DNA from: Candidatus Nomurabacteria bacterium | GTDB taxonomy: Bacteria; Patescibacteriota; Minisyncoccia; Phycocordibacterales; UBA9973 | Length of the DNA: 64,000 nucleotides | NCBI GenBank assembly: GCA_052035195.1 | Contig: JBPOHU010000003.1 | Coordinates: forward strand, 17,453 to 81,452 | Direction of reading: 5' to 3' | Part shown: one piece after another, positions 9,553 through 44,796 of the stretch | How positions within the stretch are numbered: the stretch's first letter is position 1 | Layout of the letters: every line of letters begins with the position of its first letter | Notes under the pieces: generated by a model | What the model saw: only the letters and a program-made list of their open reading frames with translations | The model's database searches: none | What the model was told of the DNA's origin: nothing | Program-made: the position numbers and the translations under genes

Positions 9553-9649
9553 ATATATAAAGGTAACTTGAGATGAGGTTTTATGCAAGGGAAGAATCTC
9601 TTAGGCACAAAATATAAAAACACCAACTTCTTGGTGTTTTTATATTTTG

Positions 9650-9722
9650 TGCCCTCAGTAGGATTTGAACCTACGACCGTCTCCTTAAGAGGGAGCTGCT
9701 CTACCAGCTGAGCTATGAGGGC
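9650..9722 (-). tRNA. tRNA-Lys (anticodon CTT)
   Basis: Manual cloverleaf: acceptor GCCCTCA/TGAGGGC, D arm GCTC..GAGC, anticodon loop CTCTTAA, T arm GTAGG-TTCAAAT-CCTAC; 73 nt. Confidence 0.8.
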
Positions 9723-9825
9723 AATTATTATTAGTACCTATTTGATGTTGTTGCGCGGGAGCCGCTACAACTTAGCTATGAGGGCATATTGCAAAAAGGC
9801 AAAAAAACTATACCATGACCACCAT

Positions 9826-13059: not shown

Positions 13060-13599
13060 ATGAAAAAGATACTTATTGTTGATGATACTCAAGCAAATCT
13101 TGATGCAGCCAAAGCCTTCTTTTCAACCGTTCCTGGTTATGAGTTTGTGTATACTACAAACAGAAAAGATGCGGAAGCTTGTCTTCTCGAGGTTGATGGG
13201 TTAATTACAGATAGAAGTTTGCCATGGACAGACACCGAGCAATTCAATTGCGAAATACCAAGCGGAGCCTCTAAAAGTTTATTCCCTAATTACCTTCAAA
13301 GTAATGGCCACTACCTGCTTTTGAAGTCTTGCTTGTTAAACAAACCGTCTATCATGGCTACAGATCATGGAAAGTTCGGTCTAATGAAATTAGCAAACCA
13401 AAGTAAGTGGCAAGAAGATTCCTCGCTAGAGGATATAATCTTCCTGATGGAAAACAGAACAACGCTTGATACCTATTTCACATTCGGTAAACATCCCGCA
13501 GTAAAAGAAATTCAAGTTTTAGGATGGTATGAAAATTTATCGAAGACTACTCATCAAGCTTGGAAGTTGGCATGGGAAGAAATTCAAAAACAATTTTAA
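13060..13599 (+). CDS. Hypothetical protein with receiver-like N-terminus
   Basis: N-terminus MKKILIVDDTQANLDAAKAFF...VDGLITD resembles a CheY-like receiver; the remainder is unrecognised. Confidence 0.45.
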   Translation: MKKILIVDDTQANLDAAKAFFSTVPGYEFVYTTNRKDAEACLLEVDGLITDRSLPWTDTEQFNCEIPSGASKSLFPNYLQSNGHYLLLKSCLLNKPSIMATDHGKFGLMKLANQSKWQEDSSLEDIIFLMENRTTLDTYFTFGKHPAVKEIQVLGWYENLSKTTHQAWKLAWEEIQKQF

Positions 13600-13619
13600 G
13601 TTCAAAGAAATCTGGCACT

Positions 13620-13653
13620 GACCGTAACGATAAAACGTCACGGTCTTTTTTTT
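13620..13653 (+). terminator. Rho-independent terminator
   Basis: gaccgtaacg-ataaaa-cgtcacggtc hairpin plus T9. Confidence 0.5.
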
Positions 13654-13665
13654 GTTTAGAAAAAT

Positions 13666-13813
13666 GGTCCTCTCGGTAGGACCGCTACGCTTATCTCCCT
13701 CGACTAAAACTGTTGCAACAGTTTTGTCTGGGCACCGACTCAACTGTTTTGTCTGCTGACAAAACATGTTTCCGTCGTTCGATTCCTACACGCACGACAA
13801 GAAGTTGTCGTGC
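13666..13813 (+). repeat. tRNA-linked structured repeat element, copy A (convergent with tRNA-Arg-GCG)
   Basis: Homologous to copies B, C and D. Blocks CTCCCTCGAC, GTCTGGGCACC, CTGCTG, AAAACAT and CCG.GTTCGATTCCTACACGCA, then terminal hairpin gcacgacaagaagttgtcgtgc. 5' end ggtcctctcggtagga is a direct copy of + strand 13859-13873 (the tRNA 3' end); gttcgattcctac is an inverted copy of the tRNA T arm. Confidence 0.6.
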
Positions 13814-13859
13814 TCTCAAGGATAATGTAAAAAGCCCCGCATGGGGGCTCATTACATTG

Positions 13860-13931
13860 TCCTCTCGGTAGGAATCGAACCTACATCATAACTTCCGCAA
13901 AGTTACGTCCTATCCATTGAACGACGAGAGG
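13860..13931 (-). tRNA. tRNA-Arg (anticodon GCG, unusual)
   Basis: Manual fold: acceptor CCTCTCG/CGAGAGG, D stem GTTC/GGAC, anticodon stem TAACT/AGTTA, loop TTGCGGA, T arm GTAGG-TTCGATT-CCTAC; A20 present; 72 nt. Confidence 0.6.
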
Positions 13932-13940
13932 GTATTTAGA

Positions 13941-14396
13941 TTAAAACCCGATCTTATCAAAAAGAGCGACACTTCTTGATTCTCGGAGCTCTTCTTCTTT
14001 TGCGTATGGGGCTATAGCCTCACGAACCTGGCTGGCGCTAACTCCTTCTAATGGGAGAGAGAGTGTTGGTATAAAAGAAGTCTTAACGAGCAGTAACAGC
14101 TTAACTTCTTTCCCAGTTTCGTCAAGCCAGAAGCTAGTGATGTTTTTGTAGTCTATAAGTTCTTCGTTTATAGATACTCCAAGCTCAGATATTGTTACGG
14201 ATAGTTCTTTAGGGTGCTTAAGTGCATAGATGATAGTGACTGCTCCTGCTATTAAAAGAAAAATACCAAAGAAAATATTTCCATAAAAGAAAGAAACAAC
14301 AGAGGATAATACTGACACAAGACCAACTGTCCAAATCCAGTCAGGGCTCTTGTCCTTTTTTTCAAATTCAAGTGTTTTCCAAGATAATGGCTTCAT
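13941..14396 (-). CDS. Hypothetical membrane protein
   Basis: 151 aa, two TM segments near the N-terminus, no family recognised. Confidence 0.45.
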   Translation of the reverse strand: MKPLSWKTLEFEKKDKSPDWIWTVGLVSVLSSVVSFFYGNIFFGIFLLIAGAVTIIYALKHPKELSVTISELGVSINEELIDYKNITSFWLDETGKEVKLLLLVKTSFIPTLSLPLEGVSASQVREAIAPYAKEEELRESRSVALFDKIGF

Positions 14397-14455
14397 GTTT
14401 TAAATTGTATCATGAAAAAACCACCACAGGTTTGTGGTGGTTTTTTATTTTTTAT

Positions 14456-14767
14456 TTATTCTGGTTTTTTATCAAGCTTATCTAGTCCTAGTGCCTTAAC
14501 TCCAAAATATATAACAGCTGCTACTATAACAAAATCTACAACAGTAGAAATGAAAGCTCCATATTTAAGAGTTGCACCGCCCATTTCAACTGCCTTGTCA
14601 GCAAGATCAACTTTTCCTAATGCTAGGCCAACTAGGGGATTTATGACATTTTCTACCAAAGAAGAAACTATCTTTGATACTGCTCCTCCTAGGATAAATC
14701 CGACAGCAAGTCCGACTACTCCTTGAGCTCTTATAAAGTCCATAAACCCTTGTAACTTTTGATTCAT
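14456..14767 (-). CDS. mscL: Large-conductance mechanosensitive channel MscL
   Basis: MNQKLQGFMDFIRAQGVVGLAVGFILGGAVSKIVSSLVENVINPLVG, classic MscL N-terminus and TM1; 103 aa. Confidence 0.85.
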   Translation of the reverse strand: MNQKLQGFMDFIRAQGVVGLAVGFILGGAVSKIVSSLVENVINPLVGLALGKVDLADKAVEMGGATLKYGAFISTVVDFVIVAAVIYFGVKALGLDKLDKKPE

Positions 14768-14831
14768 AAAATTGATTAAATTAGTATTATGGTTTTAGTA
14801 TAGCAAATTAGTTATTTTGGTAAGGTTAATA

Positions 14832-14975
14832 GGGGATTCTCCCTCGACTTTTTCCTCGTCAGTCACTCGGAAAAGTCTGGGCACCAGCTCGCTTGTTTTT
14901 CCTGCTGGAAAAACATAGCTCCGCTGTTCGAATCCCCACACACGCAAAGCAGTTTGCGTGTTCCACCTCCGCAAA
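14832..14975 (+). repeat. tRNA-linked structured repeat element, copy B (convergent with tRNA-Ser)
   Basis: GGGGATTC...GAATCCCC closing stem. Hairpin 1 is GACTTTTTCC-loop TCGTCAGTCACTC-GGAAAAGTC. Hairpin 2 is GTTTTTCC-TGCT-GGAAAAAC. Terminal hairpin acgcaaagcagtttgcgt. GTTCGAATCCCC matches the tRNA-Ser T arm. Confidence 0.6.
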
Positions 14976-15010
14976 TAAAAATTACCCAATTTATGGGTAA
15001 TTTTTATTTG

Positions 15011-15095
15011 CGGAGGTGGGGGGATTCGAACTCCCGGTACCTTGCGGTACTCCTGTTTTCAAGACAGGTGCACTAAACCACTATGCGACACCTCC
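15011..15095 (-). tRNA. tRNA-Ser (anticodon TGA)
   Basis: Acceptor GGAGGTG/CACCTCC, anticodon stem-loop CCTGT-CTTGAAA-ACAGG, long variable arm GTACCGCAAGGTAC, T arm GGGAG-TTCGAAT-CCCCC; 85 nt. Confidence 0.8.
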
Positions 15096-15172
15096 AATAT
15101 TTATTTTTCAGATAACAGGACGAATGTACCATAAGAACGAGCTTTTTTCAATCTTTGTGATAATCTAAAAGT

Positions 15173-15559
15173 ATGAAATACCTAGGTGTCGATTATGGGA
15201 CAAAAAAATCAGGAATAGCCGTTTCGGATGAAGAGGCTTCTTTTGCTTTCCCTAAAGAAATAGTTTCAACTGATTCTTTGGTTAGCTATGTAGCAGATTT
15301 TTCCAAAAAAGAGCCTCTGCAGGGAATAGTCTGGGGGCTTTCTTTGGCAAGTAACGGTGCTGAAAATGATATAACAGCACAAGTTCAACAGCTAGCAAAA
15401 AAAATAGAAACACAAACCAGTATCTCTGCATTTTTTATCAGAGAAGACTTTTCTTCTGTTGAGGCCCATCGCTATCAGACGAAGAAGGGTGATAGGGACG
15501 ATAGTGCTGCTGCCATCATCCTTCAAAGATTTCTTGATAAACATAAAAAACACATTTAA
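15173..15559 (+). CDS. ruvX: Holliday junction resolvase-like nuclease YqgF/RuvX
   Basis: MKYLGVDYGTKKSGIAVSD... RNase H-like YqgF signature; 128 aa. Confidence 0.75.
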   Translation: MKYLGVDYGTKKSGIAVSDEEASFAFPKEIVSTDSLVSYVADFSKKEPLQGIVWGLSLASNGAENDITAQVQQLAKKIETQTSISAFFIREDFSSVEAHRYQTKKGDRDDSAAAIILQRFLDKHKKHI

Positions 15560-15569
15560 ACTAAAATAT

Positions 15570-15944
15570 ATGGAAGAACAAACAATTAAAAAAGAAGAAG
15601 TCGTACAAAAGCCAGACTATCTAACTATAGAAGAGTTTTCAAAACTGGAAGCTCGTATAGGACTAGTTATTTCTGCCCAAGAAATAGAAGGATCAGAAAA
15701 ACTAATTAAATTCACTCTTGATTTTGGTGAAGAATCTCCAAGACAAATCCTCTCTGGTATTAAGGCTTGGTATGACCCCACATCGCTTGTTGGTAAGAAA
15801 ATGCTTTTCGTTGTTAATCTTGCTCCAAGAAAAATGATGGGCTTGGAATCACAAGGCATGCTTATGGCGGTAGACGGTCTTGATGGGGAACCTGTTTTTC
15901 TTATTCCAGAAAAAGATGTTAAGCCAGGATCAAAGGTTAGATAA
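15570..15944 (+). CDS. tRNA-binding domain protein (CsaA/Trbp111/EMAP-like)
   Basis: LEARIGLVISAQEIEGSEKLIKFTLDFGEE...LFVVNLAPRKMMGLESQGML, typical OB-fold tRNA-binding domain; start at ATG 15570. Confidence 0.65.
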   Translation: MEEQTIKKEEVVQKPDYLTIEEFSKLEARIGLVISAQEIEGSEKLIKFTLDFGEESPRQILSGIKAWYDPTSLVGKKMLFVVNLAPRKMMGLESQGMLMAVDGLDGEPVFLIPEKDVKPGSKVR

Positions 15945-15991
15945 TTTTTTTGATATAGTTTTATCTCTTACAATTTCGTATAATAGATAGA

Positions 15992-17065
15992 GTGAATATT
16001 CTAAGTAGATTATTTCCAACACCAAACTCTATTGCTATTCCAACAGTCGGATTAGATTTTTCTGATTCAACTATGAGATTTATGTCCTTGGAGATTCATC
16101 CGAAAGGTCTTTTGCCAAAAAATTTTGCTCAAGCTTCTATTCCGGAAGGTTGCATGAAAGGAGGTAAAATAATAGACACTGAAAAATTTATTAAATTTCT
16201 TAAGCAGATTAAAAAAGATTATAAACTCAAGTACGCTCGTATATCTATTCCGGAGTCACAAGTTTATTCTTTTACTTTGTCTTTAGACTATAGCGCAAGA
16301 GAAGATATAAGAGGTGCCATAGAAGTTCTTATCGAAGACAATATACCTCTTAAAGCCATTGAAACAGTTTTTGATTATCATGTTTTGAGCGTATCTGAAA
16401 AGTCTATAGTTGTTCAGGTGGTGGCCCTCTCTGAAGCTGTTGCAACAAATTATTTTAATGCTTTTGCTGATGCTGGCATTATCCCTGTTAGTTTTGAGCT
16501 TGAAGGACAAGCTATTACTAGAGCAGTTATTGATCCAGAAGATACGGGCTCTTGTATGATTGTTGATTTTGGGGCCAACAGAACTGGTATAACCATCGTT
16601 ACAAATAAGACAGCCATGGTTACCGCTACACTAGACTTCGGAGGTAATACTTTGTCACAAATGTTGGCAAAAGAAATGAACCTTTCTTTTGCTGATGCTG
16701 AAAAGATTAAGAGAGAGCATGGCTTGGCAACACTCGGAGAGCATAAAGATGTTTTTCTAGTTTTAGCAAATGGTATTTCAGTTTTAAAAGACGAAATAAA
16801 TAGGCGTTATGTTTATTGGCACGAAAAGAAAGATCAGCTCGGAGGTTTTCCAGCTATCGATACTATCTATCTTTGTGGCGGGCATAGTAACCTAATAGGT
16901 CTCGATGAGTATTTAAGTGCTAGTTTGAAACTAAAGGTTGTTCAAGTAAATCCTTGGAGAAACTGTTTTTCTTTAGATAAGCATATTCCCCAGATAAATA
17001 AAGAAGTATCTATGAGTTATGTTACCGCTGTAGGGCTTGCTTTAGCTGATTATATATATGATTAA
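15992..17065 (+). CDS. pilM: Type IV pilus assembly protein PilM (actin-like ATPase)
   Basis: 357-aa actin-fold protein (VGLDFSDSTMRF..., IVDFGANRTGITIV) directly upstream of pilN and pilO; alternative (GTG) start. Confidence 0.65.
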   Translation: MNILSRLFPTPNSIAIPTVGLDFSDSTMRFMSLEIHPKGLLPKNFAQASIPEGCMKGGKIIDTEKFIKFLKQIKKDYKLKYARISIPESQVYSFTLSLDYSAREDIRGAIEVLIEDNIPLKAIETVFDYHVLSVSEKSIVVQVVALSEAVATNYFNAFADAGIIPVSFELEGQAITRAVIDPEDTGSCMIVDFGANRTGITIVTNKTAMVTATLDFGGNTLSQMLAKEMNLSFADAEKIKREHGLATLGEHKDVFLVLANGISVLKDEINRRYVYWHEKKDQLGGFPAIDTIYLCGGHSNLIGLDEYLSASLKLKVVQVNPWRNCFSLDKHIPQINKEVSMSYVTAVGLALADYIYD

Positions 17066-17585
17066 TCTCTTACCTTACAAAGAAAAAAAGAGTATCGAAA
17101 GAATAAGAATGATCAGAATCATTCAAGCTGTAGTTGTCGGTATGGCTGTTTTGATAGTTGTTTCTGCTATTTTGTTAATACCAACTCTTATAACAATAAG
17201 GTCACGCTTTTCAATTGCTTCAAATCAAATAAGCGCATTAGAGAGTGGGGGTAGTCTAGCTTCAGACGTAGATCTATCTGTTTTAGAGAGTAGAGCTAAA
17301 TCCGTTAGAGATATTTTGGCGATACCAGAGAAACCACAAGTGACTGACTATATAGATATAGTCCGCTCTATTGTTCCTAGTTCTGTGACCATAGAGCGCT
17401 TTTCAAGCGAAAATGAAAATCTTCTTGAGGTTTTTGGTACGGCTGAAAGTAGAGAAATTTTGCAGGATTTTATAAATAAACTTGAAGCCCAAGAAAGTAT
17501 TGCTTTGGTTGATAGTCCTGTTTCTAATTTTATTAAAAACAAAAATGGTAGTTTTAAGCTAACTATTTCATTTAAAACACAATGA
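17058..17585 (+). CDS. pilN: Type IV pilus assembly protein PilN
   Basis: N-terminus MINLLPYKEKK, a hallmark of PilN, followed by one TM and a periplasmic domain. Confidence 0.7.
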   Translation: MINLLPYKEKKSIERIRMIRIIQAVVVGMAVLIVVSAILLIPTLITIRSRFSIASNQISALESGGSLASDVDLSVLESRAKSVRDILAIPEKPQVTDYIDIVRSIVPSSVTIERFSSENENLLEVFGTAESREILQDFINKLEAQESIALVDSPVSNFIKNKNGSFKLTISFKTQ

Positions 17586-18169
17586 GTAATATTTTAAAAA
17601 ACAACATTATAAAGTTAATAATATATATAGCTTTGGTTATAGCTTTATTTGTCGGGGTTTCTGTTGTTTTTAGTAGTATGAAAATAAAGATGTCAAAGGT
17701 TTATGATATCAAAGAAAAACTAGCTTCTTATCAAAAAAACAAAAAAGCTTTTGAAGACGAAGTAAAAGAAATACGAGACTTAGAAGAGAGAGTAAAAATC
17801 TTAGAGTCATTTAAGGTCTCTAGTGAGAACATTCCATCTCTTCTATCTACCCTTGAGAAGCTGGCAAATAAACACTCTATATCTTTTGAGATAACAAGCG
17901 TGCAAACCCCAATAGAAAATGAGAAAACAAAGCTTTTGATTGAGACAACTTCAAAAGGTTCTTTTGTCCAAATCCAAAACTTTTTTGAAGAATTACAACA
18001 TCAAAATTTTCAAGTTAGACTTGCAAAAGTTTTTCTCTTTTCAGAAAAAGGAGTATCTTCTAGTCCAGAAGTAACAGGTACACTTTCTGTGAAGGGATCT
18101 AAAACGCCAACAGTTTCAAAAGAGTTAAAATGGCAAGGTGTTGCTACAATAGAAATACAGAGTTTTTAA
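17582..18169 (+). CDS. pilO: PilO-like pilus assembly protein
   Basis: N-terminal TM then coiled coil; position after pilMN; overlapping start (operon). Confidence 0.5.
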   Translation: MSNILKNNIIKLIIYIALVIALFVGVSVVFSSMKIKMSKVYDIKEKLASYQKNKKAFEDEVKEIRDLEERVKILESFKVSSENIPSLLSTLEKLANKHSISFEITSVQTPIENEKTKLLIETTSKGSFVQIQNFFEELQHQNFQVRLAKVFLFSEKGVSSSPEVTGTLSVKGSKTPTVSKELKWQGVATIEIQSF

Positions 18170-18172
18170 AAT

Positions 18173-18481
18173 ATGAATTTTAATTTAACAAAAAACAAAC
18201 CATCGGTAAAACACAAAAAAGACGGAAGAATAAATCCTCATCGTCTTTGGATTTTGTTTATAACTATTTTTTTAATTGCTCTAACTGTTGAGATAATTGT
18301 TTTTACTTATTTTTTTATTAACTCTTCTAAAGAGTTGGACTCTCCGGTAGAGGCTAACCTTGATGCAAATACAAGTCAGATCAAGAAAATAGAGCAGGTA
18401 GTTCAAAAGACAGAAGAAGCTGTTAAAATTAGAAAGGGGGAGTCACCATCTTCACAAAATGCGAGCTCTATAGTACAGTAG
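18173..18481 (+). CDS. Small single-TM protein (possible PilP-like component)
   Basis: 102 aa, one TM, last gene of the pilMNO block. Confidence 0.4.
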   Translation: MNFNLTKNKPSVKHKKDGRINPHRLWILFITIFLIALTVEIIVFTYFFINSSKELDSPVEANLDANTSQIKKIEQVVQKTEEAVKIRKGESPSSQNASSIVQ

Positions 18482-18502
18482 AGGAACCTCGGGGAATCGA
18501 TT

Positions 18503-18574
18503 GCTCCTGTAGTTAAATGGATATAACTGCGGACTTCTAAGCCGTTATTGTAGGTTCGATTCCTACCGGGAGCA
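18503..18574 (+). tRNA. tRNA-Arg (anticodon TCT)
   Basis: Acceptor GCTCCTG/CGGGAGC (one G-U), D arm GTTA-AATGGATA-TAAC, anticodon loop CTTCTAA, T arm GTAGG-TTCGATT-CCTAC. Confidence 0.7.
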
Positions 18575-18673
18575 CAAGCGAGAGAAATAGAAAGTTTATT
18601 TTCGTATTTTCGAGCGTAGCGCTCCCGGAAAGCTCAGCTTACGAGGGAGCACAAGCGAGAGAAATAGAAAGTT
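18568..18673 (+). repeat. 29-nt perfect direct repeat (18568-18596 and 18645-18673) beginning inside the tRNA-Arg(TCT) 3' end
   Basis: gggagcacaagcgagagaaatagaaagtt occurs twice, 77 nt apart; between them gctcccgg (inverse of the tRNA acceptor 3' strand) forms a mini stem with the second gggagc. Confidence 0.7.
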
Positions 18674-18706
18674 CACTTTAGTAACTCGTGACCACATTAT
18701 AGACTT

Positions 18707-18778
18707 GCGCTCTTAGCTCAGTGGTAGAGCAGCGCTTTTACACAGCGAAGGTCGGGGGTTCAAATCCCTCAGGGCGCA
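18707..18778 (+). tRNA. tRNA-Val (anticodon TAC)
   Basis: Acceptor GCGCTCT/AGGGCGC, D arm GCTC-AGTGGTA-GAGC, anticodon loop TTTACAC, T arm GGGGG-TTCAAAT-CCCTC. Confidence 0.85.
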
Positions 18779-18826
18779 CATAATACAAAAGACACCAAAT
18801 TTGGTGTCTTTTGTATTATGTGCAAA
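18779..18826 (+). terminator. Long hairpin terminator after tRNA-Val
   Basis: cacataatacaaaagacaccaaa-ttt-ggtgtcttttgtattatgtg. Confidence 0.6.
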
Positions 18827-18848
18827 AAGTTGTGATAGTATCATAATT

Positions 18849-19580
18849 ATGACACCTATAATCTTATTAGAAACTCAAAACTACCTTGTTATCAACAAGC
18901 CAGCTTCTCTCATTGTTCATACTGATGGTAAAACGAATGAGTCAACTCTTGTTGATTGGATTTTAAAAACAAGGCCAGAAATTTCTGGTGTAGGAGAACC
19001 GGCCGTGATAGATGGAAAGGTTTTTGATAGACCAGGTATTGTTCACCGACTAGACAAGGAAACATCGGGGATTATGATAATTGCAAAAAACCAAGAATCT
19101 TTTTTATTTTTTAAGCAGGCTTTTAAAGATAGAGTTATAGAAAAAAAATATCACGCATTTGTTTGGGGGCACTTCAAAGAACTTTCCGGAATAATAAATG
19201 AACCTATTGCTAGAAGCAGTGGAGACTTTCGAAGGTGGCAGTCTGGACGAGGAAAAAGAGGGGAAGAAAGAGACGCTATAACAAACTGGTCGCTGGTCCA
19301 CACTTTTGAAGATGAAAATGAAGACCTGTTTTCTTTTGTTGAGCTTTCACCAAAGACTGGTAGGACTCATCAACTCCGTGTACATATGAAATTTATACAA
19401 AGACCTATAGTTTCAGACTCTTTATATGCTCCAAGCAAAAGAGAGGCTTTAGGTTTTTCTAGGGTGGCGCTTCATGCCAGAAGTATTCGTTTTATAGACC
19501 AGGATGGTAAAAATATAGAGATAGAAGCCCCGTATCCATTTGATTTTGACAGGGCTCTTGCGGTGTACGTTAAAATATGA
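18849..19580 (+). CDS. RluA-family 23S rRNA/tRNA pseudouridine synthase
   Basis: [16 protein letters not shown] catalytic motif, ...THQLRVHM...; start MTPIILL at 18849. Confidence 0.8.
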
Positions 19581-19596
19581 TAAAGTTTCGGCCTAT

Positions 19597-20016
19597 ATGG
19601 ATACAACTATGACATTTACCACAGTCGACGTAGAGTCACGAAAAAAGCTTGATTTTAACTCAGGCGATACTGTTCGTGTGTGGTCAAAAATTGAAGATAA
19701 GGGTAAATACCGTTTACAAGCCTTCGAGGGTATTGTTCTTGCTCGAAAACACGGAACAAGTCCAACAGCAACCTTTACCGTTAGAAAGGTTAGTAATGGA
19801 GTTGGCGTAGAGAGAGTTTTTCCACTCTATTCTCCAATGGTAGATAAGATTGAAGTTACAAAGAAAACAAAGACACGAAGAAGTAAGCTTTACTACATTC
19901 GAGATAAGGCGGTTAAAGAGATTCGTCGAAAAATGAAACAAATCCTTCTCGGAAAAGCTTCAGTAGAAGAAGGAGAAATAGTAGAAGATACTTCAAAAGA
20001 AGAATCTGCATCATAA
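19597..20016 (+). CDS. rplS: 50S ribosomal protein L19
   Basis: [31 protein letters not shown]...[16 protein letters not shown]. Confidence 0.8.
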
Positions 20017-20021
20017 AGAGA

Positions 20022-20052
20022 AGAACCGCGCATAGCGCGGTTCTTGCTTAGA
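20022..20052 (+). terminator. Rho-independent terminator
   Basis: agaagaaccgcgc-ata-gcgcggttctt hairpin. Confidence 0.6.
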
Positions 20053-20092
20053 TAGATTAATTTGTTATAGTGAAAATGCTGGAAGAAGATTT

Positions 20093-20176
20093 GCGCGGGT
20101 GGCGAAATTGGTAGACGCACTACCTTGAGGTGGTAGCCCCAGCAATGGGTTGGAGGTTCAAGTCCTCTCTCGCGCA
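20093..20176 (+). tRNA. tRNA-Leu (anticodon GAG)
   Basis: Acceptor GCGCGGG/CTCGCGC, D arm GGCGAAATTGGTAGACGC, anticodon stem-loop CTACC-TTGAGGT-GGTAG, long variable arm, T arm GGAGG-TTCAAGT-CCTCT; 84 nt. Confidence 0.8.
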
Positions 20177-20225
20177 CATAAATGAAAAAGTCCCAATTAT
20201 TTGGGATTTTTTCATTTATGTGAGA

Positions 20226-20371
20226 AACAAACAAGACTGCTCTTGTTTGAGTGAGGACTTGAACAGCGGAGCTATGATTTATCACCAGATAAATCAAGCG
20301 AGCTGGTGCCTAGGCTTTCTTGAGTGGCTGACGAGAGAAAAGGCGAAGGAAAGATTCCTCTCTCGCGCACA
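20226..20371 (-). repeat. tRNA-linked structured repeat element, copy D (sense is the - strand; lies 3' of tRNA-Leu)
   Basis: Reverse complement aligns with copy B: ...CTCGTCAGCCACTC loop, CCTAGGCACCAGCTCGCTTG, hairpin ATTTATC-TGGT-GATAAAT, CATAGCTCCGCTGTTCAAGTCCTC. + strand start GAGGACTTGAAC is an inverted copy of the tRNA-Leu T arm; + strand end TCCTCTCTCGCGCAC directly copies the tRNA-Leu 3' end (20162-20176). Confidence 0.6.
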
Positions 20372-20407
20372 AAAATGATTTAGAGACAAAAACCCCGAAA
20401 GGGGTTT

Positions 20408-21409
20408 TTGTCATGTTATAATTTTTATATGCATCTTTTTATTGGTCTCATTGCTTGTCTAGTAGGAGTCTTTATTTCTTCGTATTTACTTATAAAGAAA
20501 TACAAAAACCAAAAACTAGCTTGTCCAAGAGATAATCCTTGTGACAGTGTTACTCATAGCTCTTTTTCTAAAACCTTTGGAATACCAAATGAGATTTTAG
20601 GTTTATTTTATTTTTTAGCAGTTGGTTTTTTGATAATAAATATTTTACTAACAGGGGGATCACCCTGGGTTATTTACTCTTTATTTTTTATTGTTATTTT
20701 TGGCGGATTATTTTCTGCTTACCTTGTAGGATTACAGGCTTTTGTTATCAAGGCCTGGTGTATTTGGTGTTTAGGAGTGGCTTTTTCAAATCTTGTTCTT
20801 ATTGTCAGCCTTTTTGGTATTCCAGCGGAAAATATTTTTCCAATACTTTCTTCACAGAAAGTATTATGGATTATTGTTCATAATATAGGATTTATTCTTG
20901 GTGTTGGGGCTGCTACTATCACAGATATTTTCTTCTTTAAATTTTTGAAAGACAATGTTATCACTCAAGAAGAAAAAGACACTATGGATACACTGAGCGC
21001 TGTTATTTGGGCAGGACTTGCCATCTTGATTGTTAGTGGAATAGCTCTGTATCTACCAGAACAAGCAAGACTAGCCGTGTCTTCAAAGTTTCTAATAAAA
21101 GTAGTTGTCGTTGGAGTGATTGTATTAAATGGCTTTTTGTTAAATATGATAGTTGCTCCAAATATGAGAAGGCTTTCTTTTGAAGGAGGTCTCCCAGAAA
21201 AGAGGTTTCGTCGCCTAGCTTTTGCTCTTGGTGGAATATCTTTTTCTTCTTGGTATATAGCTTTTTTCTTAGGAGTATTACGCAGAATTCCTGTCGATTT
21301 TAATTTTGCCTTATGGGCATATCTAACAATGCTTGTTTTTGTGGTAATAGGATCACAGATTACCGAAAGATTTGTAACAAAAAATCACTTACCACGAAAA
21401 TCTGAGTAA
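20408..21409 (+). CDS. Vitamin K epoxide reductase (VKOR) family domain fused to a C-terminal multi-TM domain
   Basis: KLACPRDNPCDSVTHSSFSKTFGIPNEILGLFYF and TM CxxC (AWCIWCLGV) typical of bacterial VKOR; 333 aa. Start may be the downstream MHLF. Confidence 0.65.
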   Translation: MSCYNFYMHLFIGLIACLVGVFISSYLLIKKYKNQKLACPRDNPCDSVTHSSFSKTFGIPNEILGLFYFLAVGFLIINILLTGGSPWVIYSLFFIVIFGGLFSAYLVGLQAFVIKAWCIWCLGVAFSNLVLIVSLFGIPAENIFPILSSQKVLWIIVHNIGFILGVGAATITDIFFFKFLKDNVITQEEKDTMDTLSAVIWAGLAILIVSGIALYLPEQARLAVSSKFLIKVVVVGVIVLNGFLLNMIVAPNMRRLSFEGGLPEKRFRRLAFALGGISFSSWYIAFFLGVLRRIPVDFNFALWAYLTMLVFVVIGSQITERFVTKNHLPRKSE

Positions 21410-21484
21410 GGTCTAGATTATCCTTTGATTTTCTGGTATAACAAGATGCACACCCCACTTCGCCAAAGGCTTCGCGGGGCACGT

Positions 21485-21557
21485 GGGGATTATGGTGTAA
21501 CGGTTAACACTGAGGTTTGTGGAACCTTCGATTCGGGTTCGATTCCCGATAGTCCCC
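21485..21557 (+). tRNA. tRNA-His (anticodon GTG) with encoded G-1
   Basis: G-1 plus acceptor GGGATTA/TAGTCCC with discriminator C, D arm GTGT-AACGGTTA-ACAC, anticodon loop TTGTGGA, T arm TCGGG-TTCGATT-CCCGA. Confidence 0.8.
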
Positions 21558-21564
21558 CAAGACC

Positions 21565-21597
21565 AAAAATCTGCAACTACAATGTTGCAGATTTTTG
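21565..21597 (+). terminator. Rho-independent terminator after tRNA-His
   Basis: aaaaatctgcaac-tacaat-gttgcagattttt. Confidence 0.6.
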
Positions 21598-21599
21598 CG

Positions 21600-21840
21600 T
21601 CTATGGAGGACATTAAAGAAGCAAACTGCTTTGCTTCTGTTCGGAATCGAAAGGCGCAGCTATGCCGATAGGCAAGCGAGCCGGGGTCGCGAGTACGTAT
21701 GAGCTTGAGTTTGTCGAAGGCGAATTAGTAACTCGTGACCGATTCCCGATAGCCCCTGCTCTGACGAGAGAAAAGTCGACCGCGTGCCGCCATAGCTTTA
21801 GCGGTGGAGCAGGGAGATAAGCGTAGCGGTCCCGATATTC
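21600..21840 (-). repeat. tRNA-linked structured repeat element, copy C (sense is the - strand; convergent with tRNA-His), with internal insertion
   Basis: - strand reads GGACCGCTACGCTTATCTCCCT (22 nt identical to the copy A 5' end), then GTCGACTTTTCTCTCGTCAG, GGCTCGCTTG, CATAGCTGCGCCTTTCGATTCC and hairpin agaagcaaagcagtttgcttct (all as in copy B). + strand 21740-21757 cgattcccgatagcccc copies the tRNA-His 3' end. Also contains the TTAGTAACTCGTGACC motif. Confidence 0.55.
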
Positions 21841-21877
21841 CTTGGTTCAAATCAATTTTTCTGCTAATCTAAAAAAC

Positions 21878-22813
21878 ATGAAAGATTATCAAATTCTTCT
21901 TTTCTATAAATACGTTCATATATCAAACCCAGAAGAGGTCAGAGACTGGTTACGAGCTATTTGCCAAAAGCTTGGTTTGAAGGGGAGACTGATTGTTGCG
22001 AGCGAAGGCCTTAATATTACCCTTGAGGGGAAAACTGAGGATACTGAATTTTTCATCACTGAGATGGAAAAGGATTCGCGATTTTTGAATATTCACATGA
22101 AAAGGAGCGAGGGTACAGGAAATGCTTTTCCAAAGCTCTCTGTAAAAGTACGCCCTGAGATAGTGTCACTACACTTAGGTGTGTGTGATGTTGACCCGAA
22201 TGTTACAACTGGTATTCATTTAGCTCCTGACGAACTTCATCAATGGATTGCAGACAAGAAAGAGTTTTATATCGTCGACATGCGAAACGCGTACGAACAT
22301 GCAGTAGGGCAGTTTGCTGGATCTATTTGTCCTCCAATGGAAAACTTCCGTGACCTTCCAAAGCTAATGAAAATGATTGATCATCTAAAAGACAAGACTG
22401 TTTTAACAGTATGTACTGGTGGAGTACGTTGTGAAAAGGCATCAGGCTATCTCATCACTCAAGGATTTAAAGATGTGTATCAACTCGATGGAGGGATAGT
22501 GTCATATATGGAGAAATACCCGAACGAAGACTTTGAAGGTAAGCTTTATGTATTTGATGGACGCGTAGCTATGGGGTTTTATACGGACGACCCAAAACAT
22601 AAAATAATAGGTAAGTGCACTTCTTGTAACCTATCTTCAGAAAATATCGTTGATTGTCGAGAACGTGGTTGTAACGGACAGTTCATACTTTGTGAAGAGT
22701 GTGAAAATAAACAAACAGAAAAAAGAGGGCATACTCACTGCGTGAAGAATTGTAAAAAAGTACACAAGTCACCAATAGGGAAACTTTGGTCTAAAATAAA
22801 GGGTATTTTCTAG
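21878..22813 (+). CDS. trhO: Rhodanese-domain protein of the YceA/TrhO family (tRNA U34 hydroxylase-like)
   Basis: UPF0176 N-domain, rhodanese active-site region CTGGVRCEKASGYL, C-terminal Cys cluster; start MKDYQILLFYKY at 21878. Confidence 0.65.
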   Translation: MKDYQILLFYKYVHISNPEEVRDWLRAICQKLGLKGRLIVASEGLNITLEGKTEDTEFFITEMEKDSRFLNIHMKRSEGTGNAFPKLSVKVRPEIVSLHLGVCDVDPNVTTGIHLAPDELHQWIADKKEFYIVDMRNAYEHAVGQFAGSICPPMENFRDLPKLMKMIDHLKDKTVLTVCTGGVRCEKASGYLITQGFKDVYQLDGGIVSYMEKYPNEDFEGKLYVFDGRVAMGFYTDDPKHKIIGKCTSCNLSSENIVDCRERGCNGQFILCEECENKQTEKRGHTHCVKNCKKVHKSPIGKLWSKIKGIF

Positions 22814-35799: not shown

Positions 35800-36288
35800 T
35801 TGAAAAAAGAAATAGATATTTATTCAGGGGCAACGGCTACTATAAAAAAAATATTTAGCTGTGATAGAAAAGTTAACGAATGGGAGGACAAAAGAGATTT
35901 AAGACTCAAGGAATTGAGAGATATAGTAAAAACTAATATCCAGAGTCTAATTACCGATCCGGTTCATAAAAACTTCTTTAGCGTAGAAACGTTAGGAGCG
36001 CGTTCCTTAAAAGATTTTGATAAAAGCTTTCTCCAAGAAATAGTTAACCACCTAGCATTTAGGAATGGAAAGCTTGAATATGATGGTAGTTATACTACTT
36101 TTAATTTTGATAAAGAAGTACTGGAGAAATCAGGTTTTCATTTTACAGAAAGAAAAGCTAGAGAACTTGCAGCAAGTATTTCCACGGTTCTTAAGGGTGT
36201 TATGGTTGTTGAATTTTCAAATATATTTGATTCTAAGCCTGTTGATTTGGTTCAAATTATTTTTAAAGTTGACCTGATTATCGAATGA
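35800..36288 (+). CDS. Hypothetical protein (ORFan cassette gene 1)
   Basis: 162 aa, cytoplasmic, followed by the GGCCGCATTTGCGGC-T8 terminator module. Confidence 0.45.
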   Translation: MKKEIDIYSGATATIKKIFSCDRKVNEWEDKRDLRLKELRDIVKTNIQSLITDPVHKNFFSVETLGARSLKDFDKSFLQEIVNHLAFRNGKLEYDGSYTTFNFDKEVLEKSGFHFTERKARELAASISTVLKGVMVVEFSNIFDSKPVDLVQIIFKVDLIIE

Positions 36289-36293
36289 TTTAA

Positions 36294-36317
36294 GGCCGCA
36301 TTTGCGGCTTTTTTTTA
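36294..36317 (+). terminator. Cassette boundary module copy 1 (terminator part)
   Basis: ggccgcatttgcggc plus T9; same hairpin as copies at 36715, 37328 and 37897. Confidence 0.6.
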
Positions 36318-36388
36318 TTTGAGATTCACCATGGTTGGCGTGGTTGACTTCCGATTTTTTTAGTGTAGAGTTCTTTAAAATATTATTT

Positions 36389-36709
36389 ATGAACCAAGTA
36401 ATAATCAATGGTTACTCAAGAGAAGGACTTGAGGTTTTAATAAAGGAGTTAAATATTCTTTTATTAAAAAGAGAAAACCTTTTTAAGTTTTCTGGTGTCC
36501 CCAGTAAACCGCTTTCTATTAAACCAGAAATGGTCATAATCCTTCAGGACCTGCTTTCATTTGTAAATGATAACATCAGATGTGGTAGCTATAACAATCT
36601 TGACGGCTGGAAGGAAGAGTTGAACAGGATAGGTGGCCTTTTCTGGTTTAAGGTAAGAATTTATTTTAAGGATTTTCCAGTCCAGCTCAAACCTATTTTA
36701 GGCGATTAA
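36389..36709 (+). CDS. Hypothetical protein (ORFan cassette gene 2)
   Basis: Start MNQVIINGYSREG at 36389 (ORF track 36335); 106 aa. Confidence 0.4.
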   Translation: MNQVIINGYSREGLEVLIKELNILLLKRENLFKFSGVPSKPLSIKPEMVIILQDLLSFVNDNIRCGSYNNLDGWKEELNRIGGLFWFKVRIYFKDFPVQLKPILGD

Positions 36710-36710
36710 T

Positions 36711-36790
36711 ACAAGGCCGCATTTGCGGCTTTTTTTTATTTAGGATTGACTTCCAAACCCTTTCTTGTATTATCAAGAAAAATATTTAAG
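36711..36790 (+). repeat. Cassette boundary module copy 2: terminator hairpin plus promoter TTGACT-16-TATTAT
   Basis: aaggccgcatttgcggc-T8-tatttaggaTTGACTtccaaaccctttcttgTATTATcaag; ~85 nt nearly identical to copy 3. Confidence 0.65.
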
Positions 36791-37318
36791 ATGGAAAATA
36801 AAAAAAAAGATTGTCCTCTTTGTGGGGCAATAGGGGTCATTTCCCAAGAAGAGTATTCTTCTAGTACCATAACTACTCCAGCTCCGAGTGGGACTATTGG
36901 AAACTCAAGGATTGTTCATACAGGTGGTAAATGGGATTTTTCTCATTCAAAGGAATGTAAAAAACTTGAAGGCGCTTTAGACAAAGAAGGTCTTTTGCGT
37001 TTCCATTTGGACAAGCTTGAGGTGTGGCATGCAGACACAAAATCTTTCGAAGATTATAATGATTTGCTGGGTACAAAGAATTTAAAAATTATACCTTATG
37101 CAAAGAGAGAAGAAGGTCGTTGGCTTTATCAGGTTTGTATTCAAGAAATCTACGGCCACCATAGAAAGGAATTGTTTACAAAGGGCAGAGATTTTGATGG
37201 TGCATTTTTTAACCTCAGGCACCGGCTTCTTTGTGGAGAAATTATTGAATTTGACTCCCAGAATAAATTTCAGGTCTTAGAGACGGAATCAAATCCAGAA
37301 ATTTTTCAAATATTTTAG
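36791..37318 (+). CDS. Hypothetical protein (ORFan cassette gene 3)
   Basis: Start MENKKKDCPLCG at 36791; 175 aa. Confidence 0.45.
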   Translation: MENKKKDCPLCGAIGVISQEEYSSSTITTPAPSGTIGNSRIVHTGGKWDFSHSKECKKLEGALDKEGLLRFHLDKLEVWHADTKSFEDYNDLLGTKNLKIIPYAKREEGRWLYQVCIQEIYGHHRKELFTKGRDFDGAFFNLRHRLLCGEIIEFDSQNKFQVLETESNPEIFQIF

Positions 37319-37322
37319 GAAT

Positions 37323-37404
37323 CCCAAGGCCGCATTTGCGGCTTTTTTTATTTAGGATTGACTTCCAAAACCTTTCTTGTATTATCAAGAAAAACTATTA
37401 GCAA
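37323..37404 (+). repeat. Cassette boundary module copy 3: terminator hairpin plus promoter TTGACT-16-TATTAT
   Basis: Differs from copy 2 by 2-3 nt over ~85 nt; TTGACT 37358-37363, TATTAT 37380-37385. Confidence 0.65.
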
Positions 37405-37893
37405 ATGAAAACAATAAAAGAGGCGTTTCTTGTCCTTGTGAAAAAGTACAAGCCGAGAATCTCGGGGCGATTTATTTTTGGGTTTAATCTGCTCGATATA
37501 GATGCTCGAGTAATTCACACCAAAGAATGTTCTGTTTCAGTTTTTTTCTGCGAACTTTTTCTTCGTTCCGGAGGCTACTCTGAAAATGGAGCATCAATTG
37601 TTATTTTCCGAGGTATTATTCCTAACGGGTCGATTTTGGAGGATCCTATTTTGGATATAGAAGATGTTCTTTGTTATATATACAAAGACAGAAACAATGA
37701 GAGTAGGATCGATTGGTGTTTAAAGTCAGAAGTTCTTACTTTTTCTTTAAAAGACACCCCGATAAACCCCTTAAAAAACATTTCACAAAGAGAGGAGGTT
37801 ATTGTTTCTAAGATCATTTGGAAACTCCAAAAACAGCTTTCAAATACGCCAAAAGGGATAGTTCCTTTTCTAAAGAGATTGTTCAAAGATTAA
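37405..37893 (+). CDS. Hypothetical protein (ORFan cassette gene 4)
   Basis: 162 aa, followed by the variant terminator gtcgcatttgcggc-T7 at 37897-37918. Confidence 0.45.
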   Translation: MKTIKEAFLVLVKKYKPRISGRFIFGFNLLDIDARVIHTKECSVSVFFCELFLRSGGYSENGASIVIFRGIIPNGSILEDPILDIEDVLCYIYKDRNNESRIDWCLKSEVLTFSLKDTPINPLKNISQREEVIVSKIIWKLQKQLSNTPKGIVPFLKRLFKD

Positions 37894-44400: not shown

Positions 44401-44796
44401 GGAAATGCGTTTCGTAAATCAAAAAATATCCCAATTAGACAGCCTCTTAAGCTTATGAAAATATCATATGATGCTTTATCAAAAGATCTTACTTCTCTTA
44501 TAGAAGAAGAACTTAATATAAAAATGGTTTTAGTTGATACTGAAATTCAGCCAGCAGGAGAGATATATGTTGATGAAGAAATTACTCCAGAACTCAAACT
44601 CGAAGGGGAATACCGCGAGCTAGTTCGCTTGGTCCAAGACATGAGAAAAGAAAAAGGTCTTACTCCACAAGATGAGATCTCTCTAACACTTCCAGAAAAG
44701 TACAATGAAATATTTGCTAAATTTGGCGAAGAATTGAAAAAGGTTGTTGGTGCGAGGGAAGTGTCAGTACAAGGAGAAGAAGTTATGCTTAGTTAG
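41419..44796 (+). CDS. ileS: Isoleucine--tRNA ligase with an embedded histidine-phosphatase (PGAM-like) domain
   Basis: HIGH-region PPTANAKPALHHLEARAFKD, editing domain, KMSKS (KKMSKSIGN). ~200-aa insertion with FVMRHGQTDHN and LIMTHGAVARAL between RYWGTPLPVWE and DVWFDSG. Confidence 0.9.
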   Translation: MDNNQQQSKSQSALREEEVLQFWKEKDIFKKSVEKNVTGKEFVFFEGPPTANAKPALHHLEARAFKDVIPRYKTMQGYHVARRAGWDTHGLPVELQIEKALGLESKKDIEKYGVAAFNKACKESVFTYIKDWEIFTDRMGYWVDKKSAYYTFNSSYMESLWHIVGEINKRNLLYKDYKVVPWCPRCGTGLSSHELAQGYQDVKDLSVYAKFKIVGLEKAYFLAWTTTPWTLPGNVALAVGNDIEYVEAKVGDEIFVLAKERLSLLAEGYEIIAQHKGSEMIGMEYEPLYPYLKREAEKKGLDTTKAFKVYTADFVTTTDGTGIVHIAPMYGADDFDLGTKMGLTKFHTVNEGGHFIPGTDFLEGRFVKDESVAVDIIKDLAGRGQLFKKEKYEHSYPHCWRCKTPLLYYARDSWYVRMSELRDDLLKANDDVNWEPEHIKNGRFGEWLREVKDWAFSRERYWGTPLPVWESVDGDRVVVDSIDTLKKLSITSQNKYFVMRHGQTDHNVRQEWNATITNPDPLTEKGIQQVKDASNNFKEDIDIIITSPFSRTKESAQIFKETKGLNVEIIEDPRIAEWNVGKEFDGKPFSKYFEVRNVNEDRYGFKASDGESYLDILKRSGEFIYDLESKYKGKRVLIMTHGAVARALELHSHGISFDSLYRNTRDYNNFENADLREINFVPLPHNENFELDLHKPYIDEVELYKDGKKLTRVKEVMDVWFDSGGMPFAQEHYMGEGTLSYPADFISEAIDQTRGWFYTLLAVGVLMNRESPYKNVICLGHLLDKDGKKMSKSIGNIVEPFEQMDTFGADAVRWWMYSVNAPGESKNYDPKSVAEINNKVFNLFNNVLSFYELYRDKELEDQNNKSENILDKWILARLNQTLAEVTNSLDAYDLFRPTRALRDLIDDLSTWYLRRSRDRIKDGEKQAKQTLYYVLKNTAQAMAPFAPFFAEHVWQKLKLDSDAESVHLALWPDYQEADSELINNMQITRNFCTAGNAFRKSKNIPIRQPLKLMKISYDALSKDLTSLIEEELNIKMVLVDTEIQPAGEIYVDEEITPELKLEGEYRELVRLVQDMRKEKGLTPQDEISLTLPEKYNEIFAKFGEELKKVVGAREVSVQGEEVMLS

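Follow-up and report, generated by a model that had tools for sequence, protein, structure and literature searches.

Genomic islands, prophages, integrative and conjugative elements (ICEs) and cis-mobilizable elements (CIMEs) insert into the 3′ part of tRNA genes, where they generate a direct repeat extending from the T-loop to the gene end, leave the tRNA intact and accrete in tandem. Folded single-strand sites, in which structure is conserved over sequence and helices are near-pure Watson–Crick, are known from integrons (attC) and the CTX phage (attP(+)); these are small units without open reading frames (ORFs) that form arrays at a fixed entry point, and the hairpin rebuilds a double-stranded site for host or trans-acting enzymes. 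MITEs (miniature inverted-repeat transposable elements) and repetitive extragenic palindromic doublets forming hairpins (REPINs) are short, non-coding, multicopy, intergenic and hairpin-forming DNAs whose enzyme is encoded elsewhere. The rtT repeats of the E. coli tyrT operon (RtT RNA in Rfam) are ~180-bp repeated units behind a tRNA gene, with a copy of its 3′ end closing each unit; they are limited to a few enterobacterial operons and have no core common to different tRNA species. Bridge RNAs of IS110 elements carry target-matched segments in a folded scaffold, with the guides placed in open loops. Here, a 64,000-nt stretch from a Candidatus Nomurabacteria bacterium (assembly GCA_052035195.1, contig JBPOHU010000003.1, positions 17,453 to 81,452; the whole stretch is termed the window) was analysed, in which an element, copy A, adjoins the gene for tRNA-Arg(GCG). 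We consider it somewhat more probable than all else (a probability of roughly 0.55) that copy A belongs to a family of non-coding, non-autonomous mobile elements of ~150–200 bp, which act at the DNA level and are specific for tRNA gene ends of Paceibacteria.

The element resembles tRNA-integrating islands and CIMEs in its location at the tRNA 3′ part, the direct repeat reaching to the tRNA end, the intact tRNA and the tandem arrays. Unlike these, it comprises ~190 bp, is geneless, has no integrase nearby, occurs at at least 38 tRNA species with each copy matched to its own tRNA, and contains internal inverted copies of the target together with a conserved three-way-junction fold. With attC and attP(+) it shares the conserved structure, the near-pure Watson–Crick helices, the absence of ORFs and the arrays at a fixed entry, whereas it lacks GTTRRRY/RYYYAAC boxes in the right orientation as well as IntI or dif, and its target varies by copy. 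An assignment as integron attC was rejected on box order and sequence: the hairpins read 5′-GTTC...GAAC-3′, the reverse order, GTTCGAA in these hairpins has a C at the first R position of the attC box GTTRRRY, and IntI was not found in the window. Like MITEs and REPINs the element is short, non-coding, multicopy, intergenic and hairpin-forming; unlike them its only inverted repeats at the edges derive from the target, resides strictly at tRNA 3′ ends in one polarity, and is represented by old copies (~73% identity). The ~180-bp repeated units behind a tRNA with a copy of its 3′ end recall rtT, but the core is common across tRNA species and there was no match to Rfam RtT. As in IS110 bridge RNA, segments matching both target strands are interleaved with a conserved folded scaffold; however, no IS110-type recombinase gene is present, the whole element is scaffold, and the matched segments pair with each other.

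The casposase of Aciduliprofundum boonei, a Cas1-family integrase, produces a 15-bp duplication adjoining a palindromic T-ψ-C-arm sequence at the 3′ end of tRNA-Pro, and casposon insertion is directional and leaves the tRNA functional (PMC5137440). For the geometry of the element, this enzyme is the nearest experimental parallel. Casposons differ in size (8–20 kb) and in carrying cas1, polB and terminal inverted repeats, whereas the element has no such terminal repeats and the window no Cas1. The duplicated segment of the element also starts ~6–8 nt deeper in the tRNA (position ~60 versus ~67–69 in A. boonei), and its repeat of ~14–18 nt, starting at the T-loop/T-stem boundary, contrasts with the sharp 15 bp of casposons. 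Group I tRNA introns of Patescibacteria were excluded because they sit inside the tRNA, in the anticodon loop (PMC13011429). A known RNA family was likewise rejected: Rfam 15 gave only the seven tRNAs at gathering score and no relevant match up to E = 10 over positions 13500–22000, and no ARAGORN or tmRNA-type match to the element was obtained. A full-text literature search retrieved no description of the element, which does not prove that none exists. Thus, the family appears to be undescribed so far.

Copy A and its empty sites

The original prediction had placed two directly oriented copies of GTCCTCTCGGTAGGA around an interval of ~180 bp, the second copy being the tRNA-Arg(GCG) gene's 3′ end. 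Exact string search reproduced both repeats at the predicted positions (DR1 and DR2, Table 1), the interval measures 177 nt (13682–13858), and ARAGORN and Rfam both identified the proximal copy as the reverse complement of tRNA positions ~60–74. With up to two mismatches, the repeat occurs at three sites in the window; the third (18561–18575, minus strand, two mismatches) is the 3′ end of tRNA-Arg(TCT). None of 100 dinucleotide shuffles gave three sites (mean 0.05).

Two relatives lack precisely the interval plus one repeat, which rules out a chance match. In L100 and L101 (L numbers denote the related loci), the flank ending in TTTAGAAAAATT runs straight into GTCCTCTCGGTAGGAATCGAAC, whereas the window contains 192 extra nt at this point, corresponding to 13682–13858 plus one repeat. 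Both loci are closely related to the window; the neighbouring 179-aa protein is 96% identical, the same terminator lies at the flank, and a covariance model of the family (see below) detected no element in either locus. Copy A is therefore a discrete insertion/deletion unit bounded by a ~15-bp direct repeat of the tRNA gene end, and its DR1 can be read as a displaced or duplicated tRNA gene end. The same arrangement was found for copy C, a 178-nt insert followed by the distal repeat TCCTCTCTCGCGCAC (20356–20370), which repeats 20163–20177. In L092, where the neighbouring VKOR is 82% identical, the tRNA-Leu gene is directly followed by a terminator and the VKOR promoter; in the window, this native terminator and promoter follow the distal repeat of copy C. 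Among 11 relatives, the tRNA-Leu and tRNA-His sites were filled, empty or occupied by a relic in a patchy manner, with empty tRNA-His sites in L093–L096 and L098. At the copy B site of L100 the core is missing, and a 25-nt palindrome with the 8-nt acceptor 3′ strand is kept.

Copies A and C bring a replacement terminator hairpin. In copy A, the hairpin between element and tRNA reads, from its sequence, as a terminator of the tRNA: the minus strand has a terminator-like site at 13850–13832 (GAGCCCCCATGCGGGGCTT followed by TTTACATT) that is not present in the empty site of L100.

Within copy A, an inverted copy of the T arm (GTTCGATTCCTAC) had been predicted at 13770–13782; the match is exact, with its position 7 nt further to the right (Table 1). 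Its source in the tRNA gene is 13868–13880 on the minus strand, and its TCCTAC can pair with GTAGGA of DR1. Two features had escaped the prediction, namely a third tRNA-derived segment, the inverted acceptor strand, and the conserved covarying fold. The core helices P2 and P3 form a three-way junction together with the stalk; the covariance model matched copy A at 13679–13823 on the plus strand (129.8 bits), and the core folded as DNA with z values of −6.6 and −5.8 on the two strands. The optional module P1a of copy A, as CCGCGAGTACGCTTATC and variants, was also aligned (alignment A2) in copy D, L001, L024, L033, L046, L048, L054, L058, L070, L074 and L083.

A tRNA-associated family with a covarying fold

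A degenerate 22-base core pattern was searched in 185,579 species genomes and gave 87 stretches in 65 assemblies, all from the Candidate Phyla Radiation (CPR) with the exception of one false positive. The same pattern retrieved at least 120 loci from metagenomes and had no match in viral contigs. A covariance model built on 86 copies identified 126 copies in loci from 65 Patescibacteria (Paceibacteria) assemblies. A tRNA gene on the opposite strand was present within 260 nt of 92 of these 126 matches, covering at least 38 anticodons. In the metagenome replicate, 77 of 98 evaluable copies had an opposite-strand tRNA within 200 nt (35 anticodons), and none a same-strand tRNA. Thus, wherever a tRNA is nearby, the polarity is constant: the element follows immediately after the tRNA 3′ end and is carried by the other strand. 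Counted the other way, 93 of 157 tRNA genes carried one or more units in the fetched loci, which had been chosen for containing an element. Tandem arrays of two to four units, identical tandem duplicates, core1/core2 chimeras and relics all occur.

Core identity was higher within a genome (0.735) than between copies at the same tRNA in other genomes (0.672). The nearest neighbour shared the anticodon in 11 of 75 cases versus 3% expected, a signal too weak to retain lineages specific for tRNA types. Recurrent annotated neighbour proteins were of the housekeeping type (Hsp20, CCA-adding enzyme, UPF0102, PrsW). An ORF family of ~210–250 aa with a helix-turn-helix (HTH) and a LAGLIDADG-like motif lies ~0.5–1.5 kb from elements in five loci at inconsistent positions (Table 1). 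Opposite some elements (L002, 5000–5200; L003, 1–990) lie tRNA 3′ halves that are missed by ARAGORN; in L003 the T-loop of the tRNA is interrupted by a core2-type unit, and the tRNA in L002 may carry an intron.

On the element strand, the unit consists of DR1, in some members P1a, the core with P2 and P3 around GGGCACC, a copy of tRNA positions 53–64 (GTTCRANYC...), AC plus a hairpin whose loop is mostly GCAG, a further copied segment from the acceptor 3′ strand (positions 65–73), a spacer that forms a hairpin and is often bordered by A and T runs, and finally the tRNA gene in reverse complement. DR1 is the reverse complement of tRNA positions ~60–73 plus 0–3 nt, i.e. of the 3′ strand of the T-stem, the 3′ strand of the acceptor stem and the trailer. 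Three segments derived from the neighbouring tRNA (direct repeat, inverted T-loop/T-stem and inverted acceptor strand) are thus interleaved with conserved modules. The match of these segments to the own tRNA was assessed in 61 copies. DR1 was identical at 15 of 15 positions in 18 copies and at 12 or more in 41; the T-part had no more than one mismatch over its 13 positions in 41 copies; and the acceptor copy agreed at 8 of 8 positions in 23 and at 6 or more in 47. The longest exact 5′ match had a median of 13 nt with the own tRNA versus 6 nt with the tRNA of another element. Exact repeats were mostly 14–20 nt long; a few fell outside this range, the shortest at 12 nt and the longest at 58 nt, and chance matches blur the repeat boundaries.

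DR1 carries the complement of the 3′ strand, and not the 5′ strand of the tRNA, and it continues into the trailer (e.g. AAT after tRNA-His) instead of CCA, which indicates DNA or a precursor rather than the mature tRNA as its source. A primer-binding site of the retroviral type was ruled out on the same grounds, as the repeat has the gene's own trailer in place of CCA. DR1 can pair with the two inverted copies, giving a stalk with the same duplex as the acceptor and T-stem of the adjacent tRNA, and this stalk closes the three-way junction.

Near-identical cores (88–90% identity; a 45-nt identical P2 and an identical hairpin) were found behind different tRNAs in different genomes, for example in L083 (Arg-GCG) versus L053 (Ala-GGC) and in L018 (Pro) versus L054 (Gln). 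In both pairs DR1, T-part, acceptor copy and spacer differ, each matching the own tRNA. The modules form a mosaic, which reflects either rewriting of the matched segments after the target or exchange of cores between units.

Two sequence peculiarities of the units recurred. The T-loop copy reads GTTCTCGTCC or GTTCTCA in L025, L033, L041, L052, L054, L062 and L079, while the tRNA keeps GTTCGAGTCC; this deviation (GA to TC at positions 57–58) is recurrent and non-random and shortens the stalk. The motif TTCGCTTCGCTCA forms the loop or spacer between element and tRNA in L008, L018, L020, L026, L042, L054, L070, L074 and L085 and also a long palindrome inside the core2 unit of L036 (540–680). Its complement contains GCGAAGC, a sequence known to form a very stable DNA mini-hairpin.

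The fold was assessed by covariation. All 37 modelled pairs, belonging to the conserved three-way junction and the hairpin, showed compensatory changes; 95.9% of cells were paired versus 68.2% in shuffles (0 of 500 reached the observed value) and 38–47% in slid controls. The AC plus hairpin module, helix 6 of the model, contributed nine covarying pairs out of nine, with 97.8% of cells paired. The helices are 95.8% Watson–Crick. On the element strand, G-U accounts for 0.85% of cells and is rarer than A-C (30 versus 65, p = 4e-4); read as RNA, the tRNA-sense strand has 65 G-U versus 30 A-C, and each of the two makes up less than 2% of cells. With DNA parameters, both strands fold equally well. 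At many loci an upstream hairpin with a T run stops ~5–15 nt short of the unit, whose other side is taken up by the adjoining spacer hairpin, so that little room is left for a promoter on either strand. A promoter scan was not informative (a weak 9/12 site upstream of copy B, none for A, C and D), and strict terminators distal to the repeat, at 6 of 45, were too few to argue from. The helix composition, the equal folding of both strands and the scant promoter room favour a structure kept at the DNA level, an RNA being less probable; should one strand be the more important, the G-U and A-C counts point to the tRNA-sense strand.

A probable mobile element and alternative origins

If the units are mobile DNA, the structure would act as a folded single strand, a small circle or a cruciform. 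The tRNA-derived arms would pair with each other and so rebuild the final ~15 bp of the tRNA gene as a duplex, with the conserved junction as its cap. A recombinase or integrase provided in trans would recognise the junction and the hairpin, bring this duplex replica into alignment with the tRNA gene end identical to it, and exchange strands within the ~15 bp. The tRNA would stay intact, and the displaced or duplicated copy would become the distal repeat. Excision would be the reverse reaction or slippage between the repeats, and repeated integration would give arrays. For copy A, the predicted empty-site junction after excision is AGAAAAAT[GT]GTCCTCTCGGTAGGAATCGAAC, and that of a circle or tandem CATTACATT-GTCCTCTCGGTAGGA-CCGCTACGC. 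The matched arms might be kept in register with the tRNA by templated correction across the palindromes. A more far-reaching version appears doubtful to us, in which the ~190-nt mobile DNA, or an RNA made from it, folds by itself and carries the target replica, the conserved junction and hairpin offer this replica to a host enzyme, integration is directed by nucleic-acid identity instead of an att site read by a protein, and the matched segments are rewritten from the new tRNA with each move, making a gene-free element reprogrammable to any tRNA gene.

Several observations weigh against a mobile element. No enzyme was identified in the window or around ~250 copies: Pfam detected no integrase, transposase or Cas1 domain among the ~60 window ORFs, and the tyrosine-recombinase box II motif H.LRH[ST] was absent from 2363 ORF segments in 224 loci with these ~250 copies. 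Inspection of both insert ends in A, C and L066 revealed no terminal inverted repeats owned by the element, the sole inverted repeats at the element being the tRNA-derived arms. Copies in one genome are only ~73% identical, hence there is no sign of a recent burst. The indel of copy B relative to L100 has no flanking repeat, and each of the presence/absence differences could reflect repeat-mediated loss rather than gain. The model gives no account of how the T-loop and acceptor copies inside the unit would be re-matched when a new tRNA is reached, templated correction being an assumption. Finally, an RNA would equally fit the strong conservation seen in unpaired nucleotides and hairpin loops.

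The last point leads to a host non-coding RNA (ncRNA) gene accompanying each tRNA gene, a minihelix mimic of the acceptor/T arm with a three-way-junction domain and a side hairpin, in which the polymorphism would reflect gene loss and the repeats would be by-products of the stalk. Its topology could be likened to the tRNA-like domain of tmRNA, and it could be processed by tRNA-end enzymes or bind a tRNA-handling protein. This is the foremost alternative, even though we regard it as rather unlikely. It would account for the 37 covarying pairs out of 37, the conserved junction nucleotides and the GCAG-type loop, for a stalk that, in most copies, has the acceptor and T-stem sequence of the adjacent tRNA, for the U-run hairpins flanking many units, for the excess of G-U over A-C (65 versus 30) if the tRNA-sense strand is the RNA, and for persistence of the family over a class-level clade. 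The inverted tRNA copies are, moreover, perfect where the direct repeat has decayed (copy B, L059, L075), which suggests maintenance. However, G-U makes up just 0.85–1.8% of cells on either strand, far below the level generally known for structured RNAs; many copies have no promoter room on either strand; the acceptor part of the stalk cannot form in two of the four window copies (A and C); and no Rfam, ARAGORN or tmRNA-type match was obtained. Loss, decay and chimeras are also frequent between relatives with 82–98% identical neighbour proteins, and tRNAs of the same species do without the element in sister genomes.

An origin without dedicated mobility would invoke errors made while strongly transcribed tRNA genes are replicated (template switching over the palindromic terminator, slippage at short repeats, unequal crossing-over), by which units would arise and spread locally, with gene conversion between dispersed copies keeping the cores alike. 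Identical tandem units and long duplications of 43–70 nt are consistent with such errors, as are tRNA-end palindromes at core-free sites (the copy B site of L100, the window tRNA-Lys and tRNA-Val genes) and cores that are more alike within a genome than at the same tRNA elsewhere. We nevertheless judge this origin improbable; it leaves unexplained one ~110-nt core at at least 38 dispersed tRNA loci in constant polarity, the clean repeat-bounded unit of 192 nt, and the near-identical cores at different tRNAs in different genomes. The original prediction had described an att-like configuration, and in this respect the repeats do behave as edges of an insertion at the tRNA 3′ end; a classical attL/attR pair of a tyrosine integrase is not supported. 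For a prophage, ICE or island, here supposed to have been reduced later to a scar of ~180 bp, a direct repeat stretching from T-loop to tRNA 3′ end is the textbook sign of integration, and tandem accretion is known for such elements. An insert is indeed flanked by the repeat, whose sequence equals the tRNA 3′ part, yet this insert has 177 nt, is non-coding and integrase-free, and the family occurs at at least 38 anticodons in genomes and 35 in metagenomes, where one or a few would be expected for one element family. With each copy matched to its own tRNA, the use of at least 38 tRNA species is beyond what a single att site read by a protein can account for. Remnants of integrase or phage genes were present at none of ~250 copies, neither the phage collection nor viral contigs gave a match, and the ~180 bp are a conserved covarying module rather than a random leftover. 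A reduced att scar is thus already contradicted and hardly credible.

CPR/Patescibacteria genomes are among the smallest of bacteria, and yet 93 of the 157 tRNA genes in the element-selected loci carry units; either an unrecognised selfish element thrives in the CPR, or these cells use a novel tRNA-linked RNA. A geneless scaffold with matches to both target strands and dozens of targets would follow the logic of programmable integration and would point to an undescribed recombinase activity. If this activity resembles the 15-bp ruler of the Cas1 family beside the T arm, it would be relevant to how CRISPR adaptation arose. In practice, the units inflate intergenic regions, their palindromes and tandem repeats break assemblies, and they can pass for prophage att sites in annotation pipelines.

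Other copies and features of the window

The window contains four copies and one relic of the family, each following closely on the 3′ end of a tRNA gene that the other strand encodes: the four copies adjoin tRNA-Arg(GCG), tRNA-Ser(TGA), tRNA-Leu(GAG) and tRNA-His, and the relic tRNA-Arg(TCT) (Table 1). Copy B has an 8-bp stalk (GGGGATTC/GAATCCCC), followed by the core, the hairpin and a perfect 26-nt palindrome (14963–14988/14994–15019) that includes the acceptor 3′ strand; its DR1 is degenerate (7 of 15), and its RNA fold had a z value of −6.5. Copy D is a chimera of the 5′ half of a core1 unit and a complete core2 unit with GGTCACGAGTTACTAA at 21725–21740, and its distal repeat is degenerate. 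The relic contains a 39-nt direct repeat (18568–18606 and 18645–18683, 92% identical) between tRNA-Arg(TCT) and tRNA-Val, made up of the last 8 nt of tRNA-Arg(TCT) and 31 nt of flank.

Table 1. Positions of copy A modules, further family members and tRNA genes in the window, and of an ORF family in related loci.
Feature	Position	Strand	Evidence or remark
Copy A, DR1 (distal direct repeat)	13667..13681	+	Exact match; reverse complement of tRNA-Arg(GCG) ~60-74
Copy A, optional module P1a (CCGCTACGCTTATC)	13682..13695	+	Between DR1 and core; only in some family members
Copy A, conserved core	13696..13777	+	Helix P2 TCCCTCGAC...GTCTGGG, junction GGGCACC, helix P3 CGAC...GTCG
Copy A, inverted T-loop/T-stem 3′-strand copy (GTTCGATTCCTAC)	13777..13789	+	13/13 versus tRNA positions 53-65
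Copy A, AC + hairpin module (ACGCACGACAAGAAGTTGTCGTGCT)	13790..13814	+	Loop GAAG here, GCAG in most copies
Copy A, degenerate inverted acceptor 3′-strand copy	13815..13822	+	CTCAAGGA versus CGAGAGGA, 5/8
Copy A, hairpin with flanking A and T runs	13824..13858	.	Between element and tRNA; part of the inserted unit
DR2 (proximal direct repeat)	13859-13873	+	Final 15 nt of tRNA-Arg(GCG), in reverse complement
tRNA-Arg(GCG)	13859..13931 (left end 13859/13860 by caller)	-	ARAGORN; Rfam RF00005, 60.1 bits
Copy B, behind tRNA-Ser(TGA)	14823..15009	+	Model match 14823-14971, 149.4 bits
tRNA-Ser(TGA)	15010-15095	-	
tRNA-Arg(TCT)	18503-18575	+	
Core2-type relic, behind tRNA-Arg(TCT)	18576..18700	-	GGTCACGAGTTACTAA at 18678-18693 (motif search)
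tRNA-Leu(GAG)	20093-20177	+	
Copy C, behind tRNA-Leu(GAG)	20178..20370	-	Model match 20218-20367, 124 bits
tRNA-His	21486-21558	+	
Copy D, behind tRNA-His	21559..21838	-	Model match 21607-21735, 51.2 bits
ORFs with HTH/LAGLIDADG-like motif	L029 2221-2960; L073 5957-6626; L075; L076; L082		

The ~60 ORFs of the window encode housekeeping functions according to Pfam (PolA, RuvA, RuvX, Fpg, PilM/N/O, aminoacyl-tRNA synthetases, RecA, FtsK, SSB and ribosomal proteins), and the homologues and related loci all derive from Patescibacteria (CPR), mainly Paceibacteria. A phage origin of the window was ruled out by these housekeeping CPR ORFs together with the absence of any match in the phage collection. 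CCA is encoded in none of the seven window tRNA genes.

Behind the element-free tRNA-Lys and tRNA-Val genes (regions 9590–9650 and 18780–18830) lie perfect palindromic terminators, with stems reaching 4–5 nt into the tRNA 3′ end. These palindromes and that at the copy B site of L100 may be relics of units or a ground state exploited by the element. The 13-nt 5′ end of tRNA-Lys(CTT) (AGCTATGAGGGCA in plus-strand reading) is found at 9711–9723 and 9774–9786, i.e. with an extra copy ~50 nt upstream, and the spacer between these repeats holds GCGGGAGCCGCTAC, which is similar to module P1a; here a tRNA 5′ end is duplicated, whereas the element duplicates 3′ ends.

Further observations concern protein-coding regions. 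The isoleucyl-tRNA synthetase (41419–44796, 1125 aa) has a His_Phos_1 histidine-phosphatase domain inserted within the synthetase at residues 497–664. At 35800–37893, four small tandem ORFs (162, 124, 190 and 162 aa; no Pfam match for the three scanned) are divided by near-identical terminators (AAGGCCGCATTTGCGGCTTTTTTTT) and repeated promoter-like spacers, and judging by this arrangement the region looks like a recently duplicated gene cassette array.

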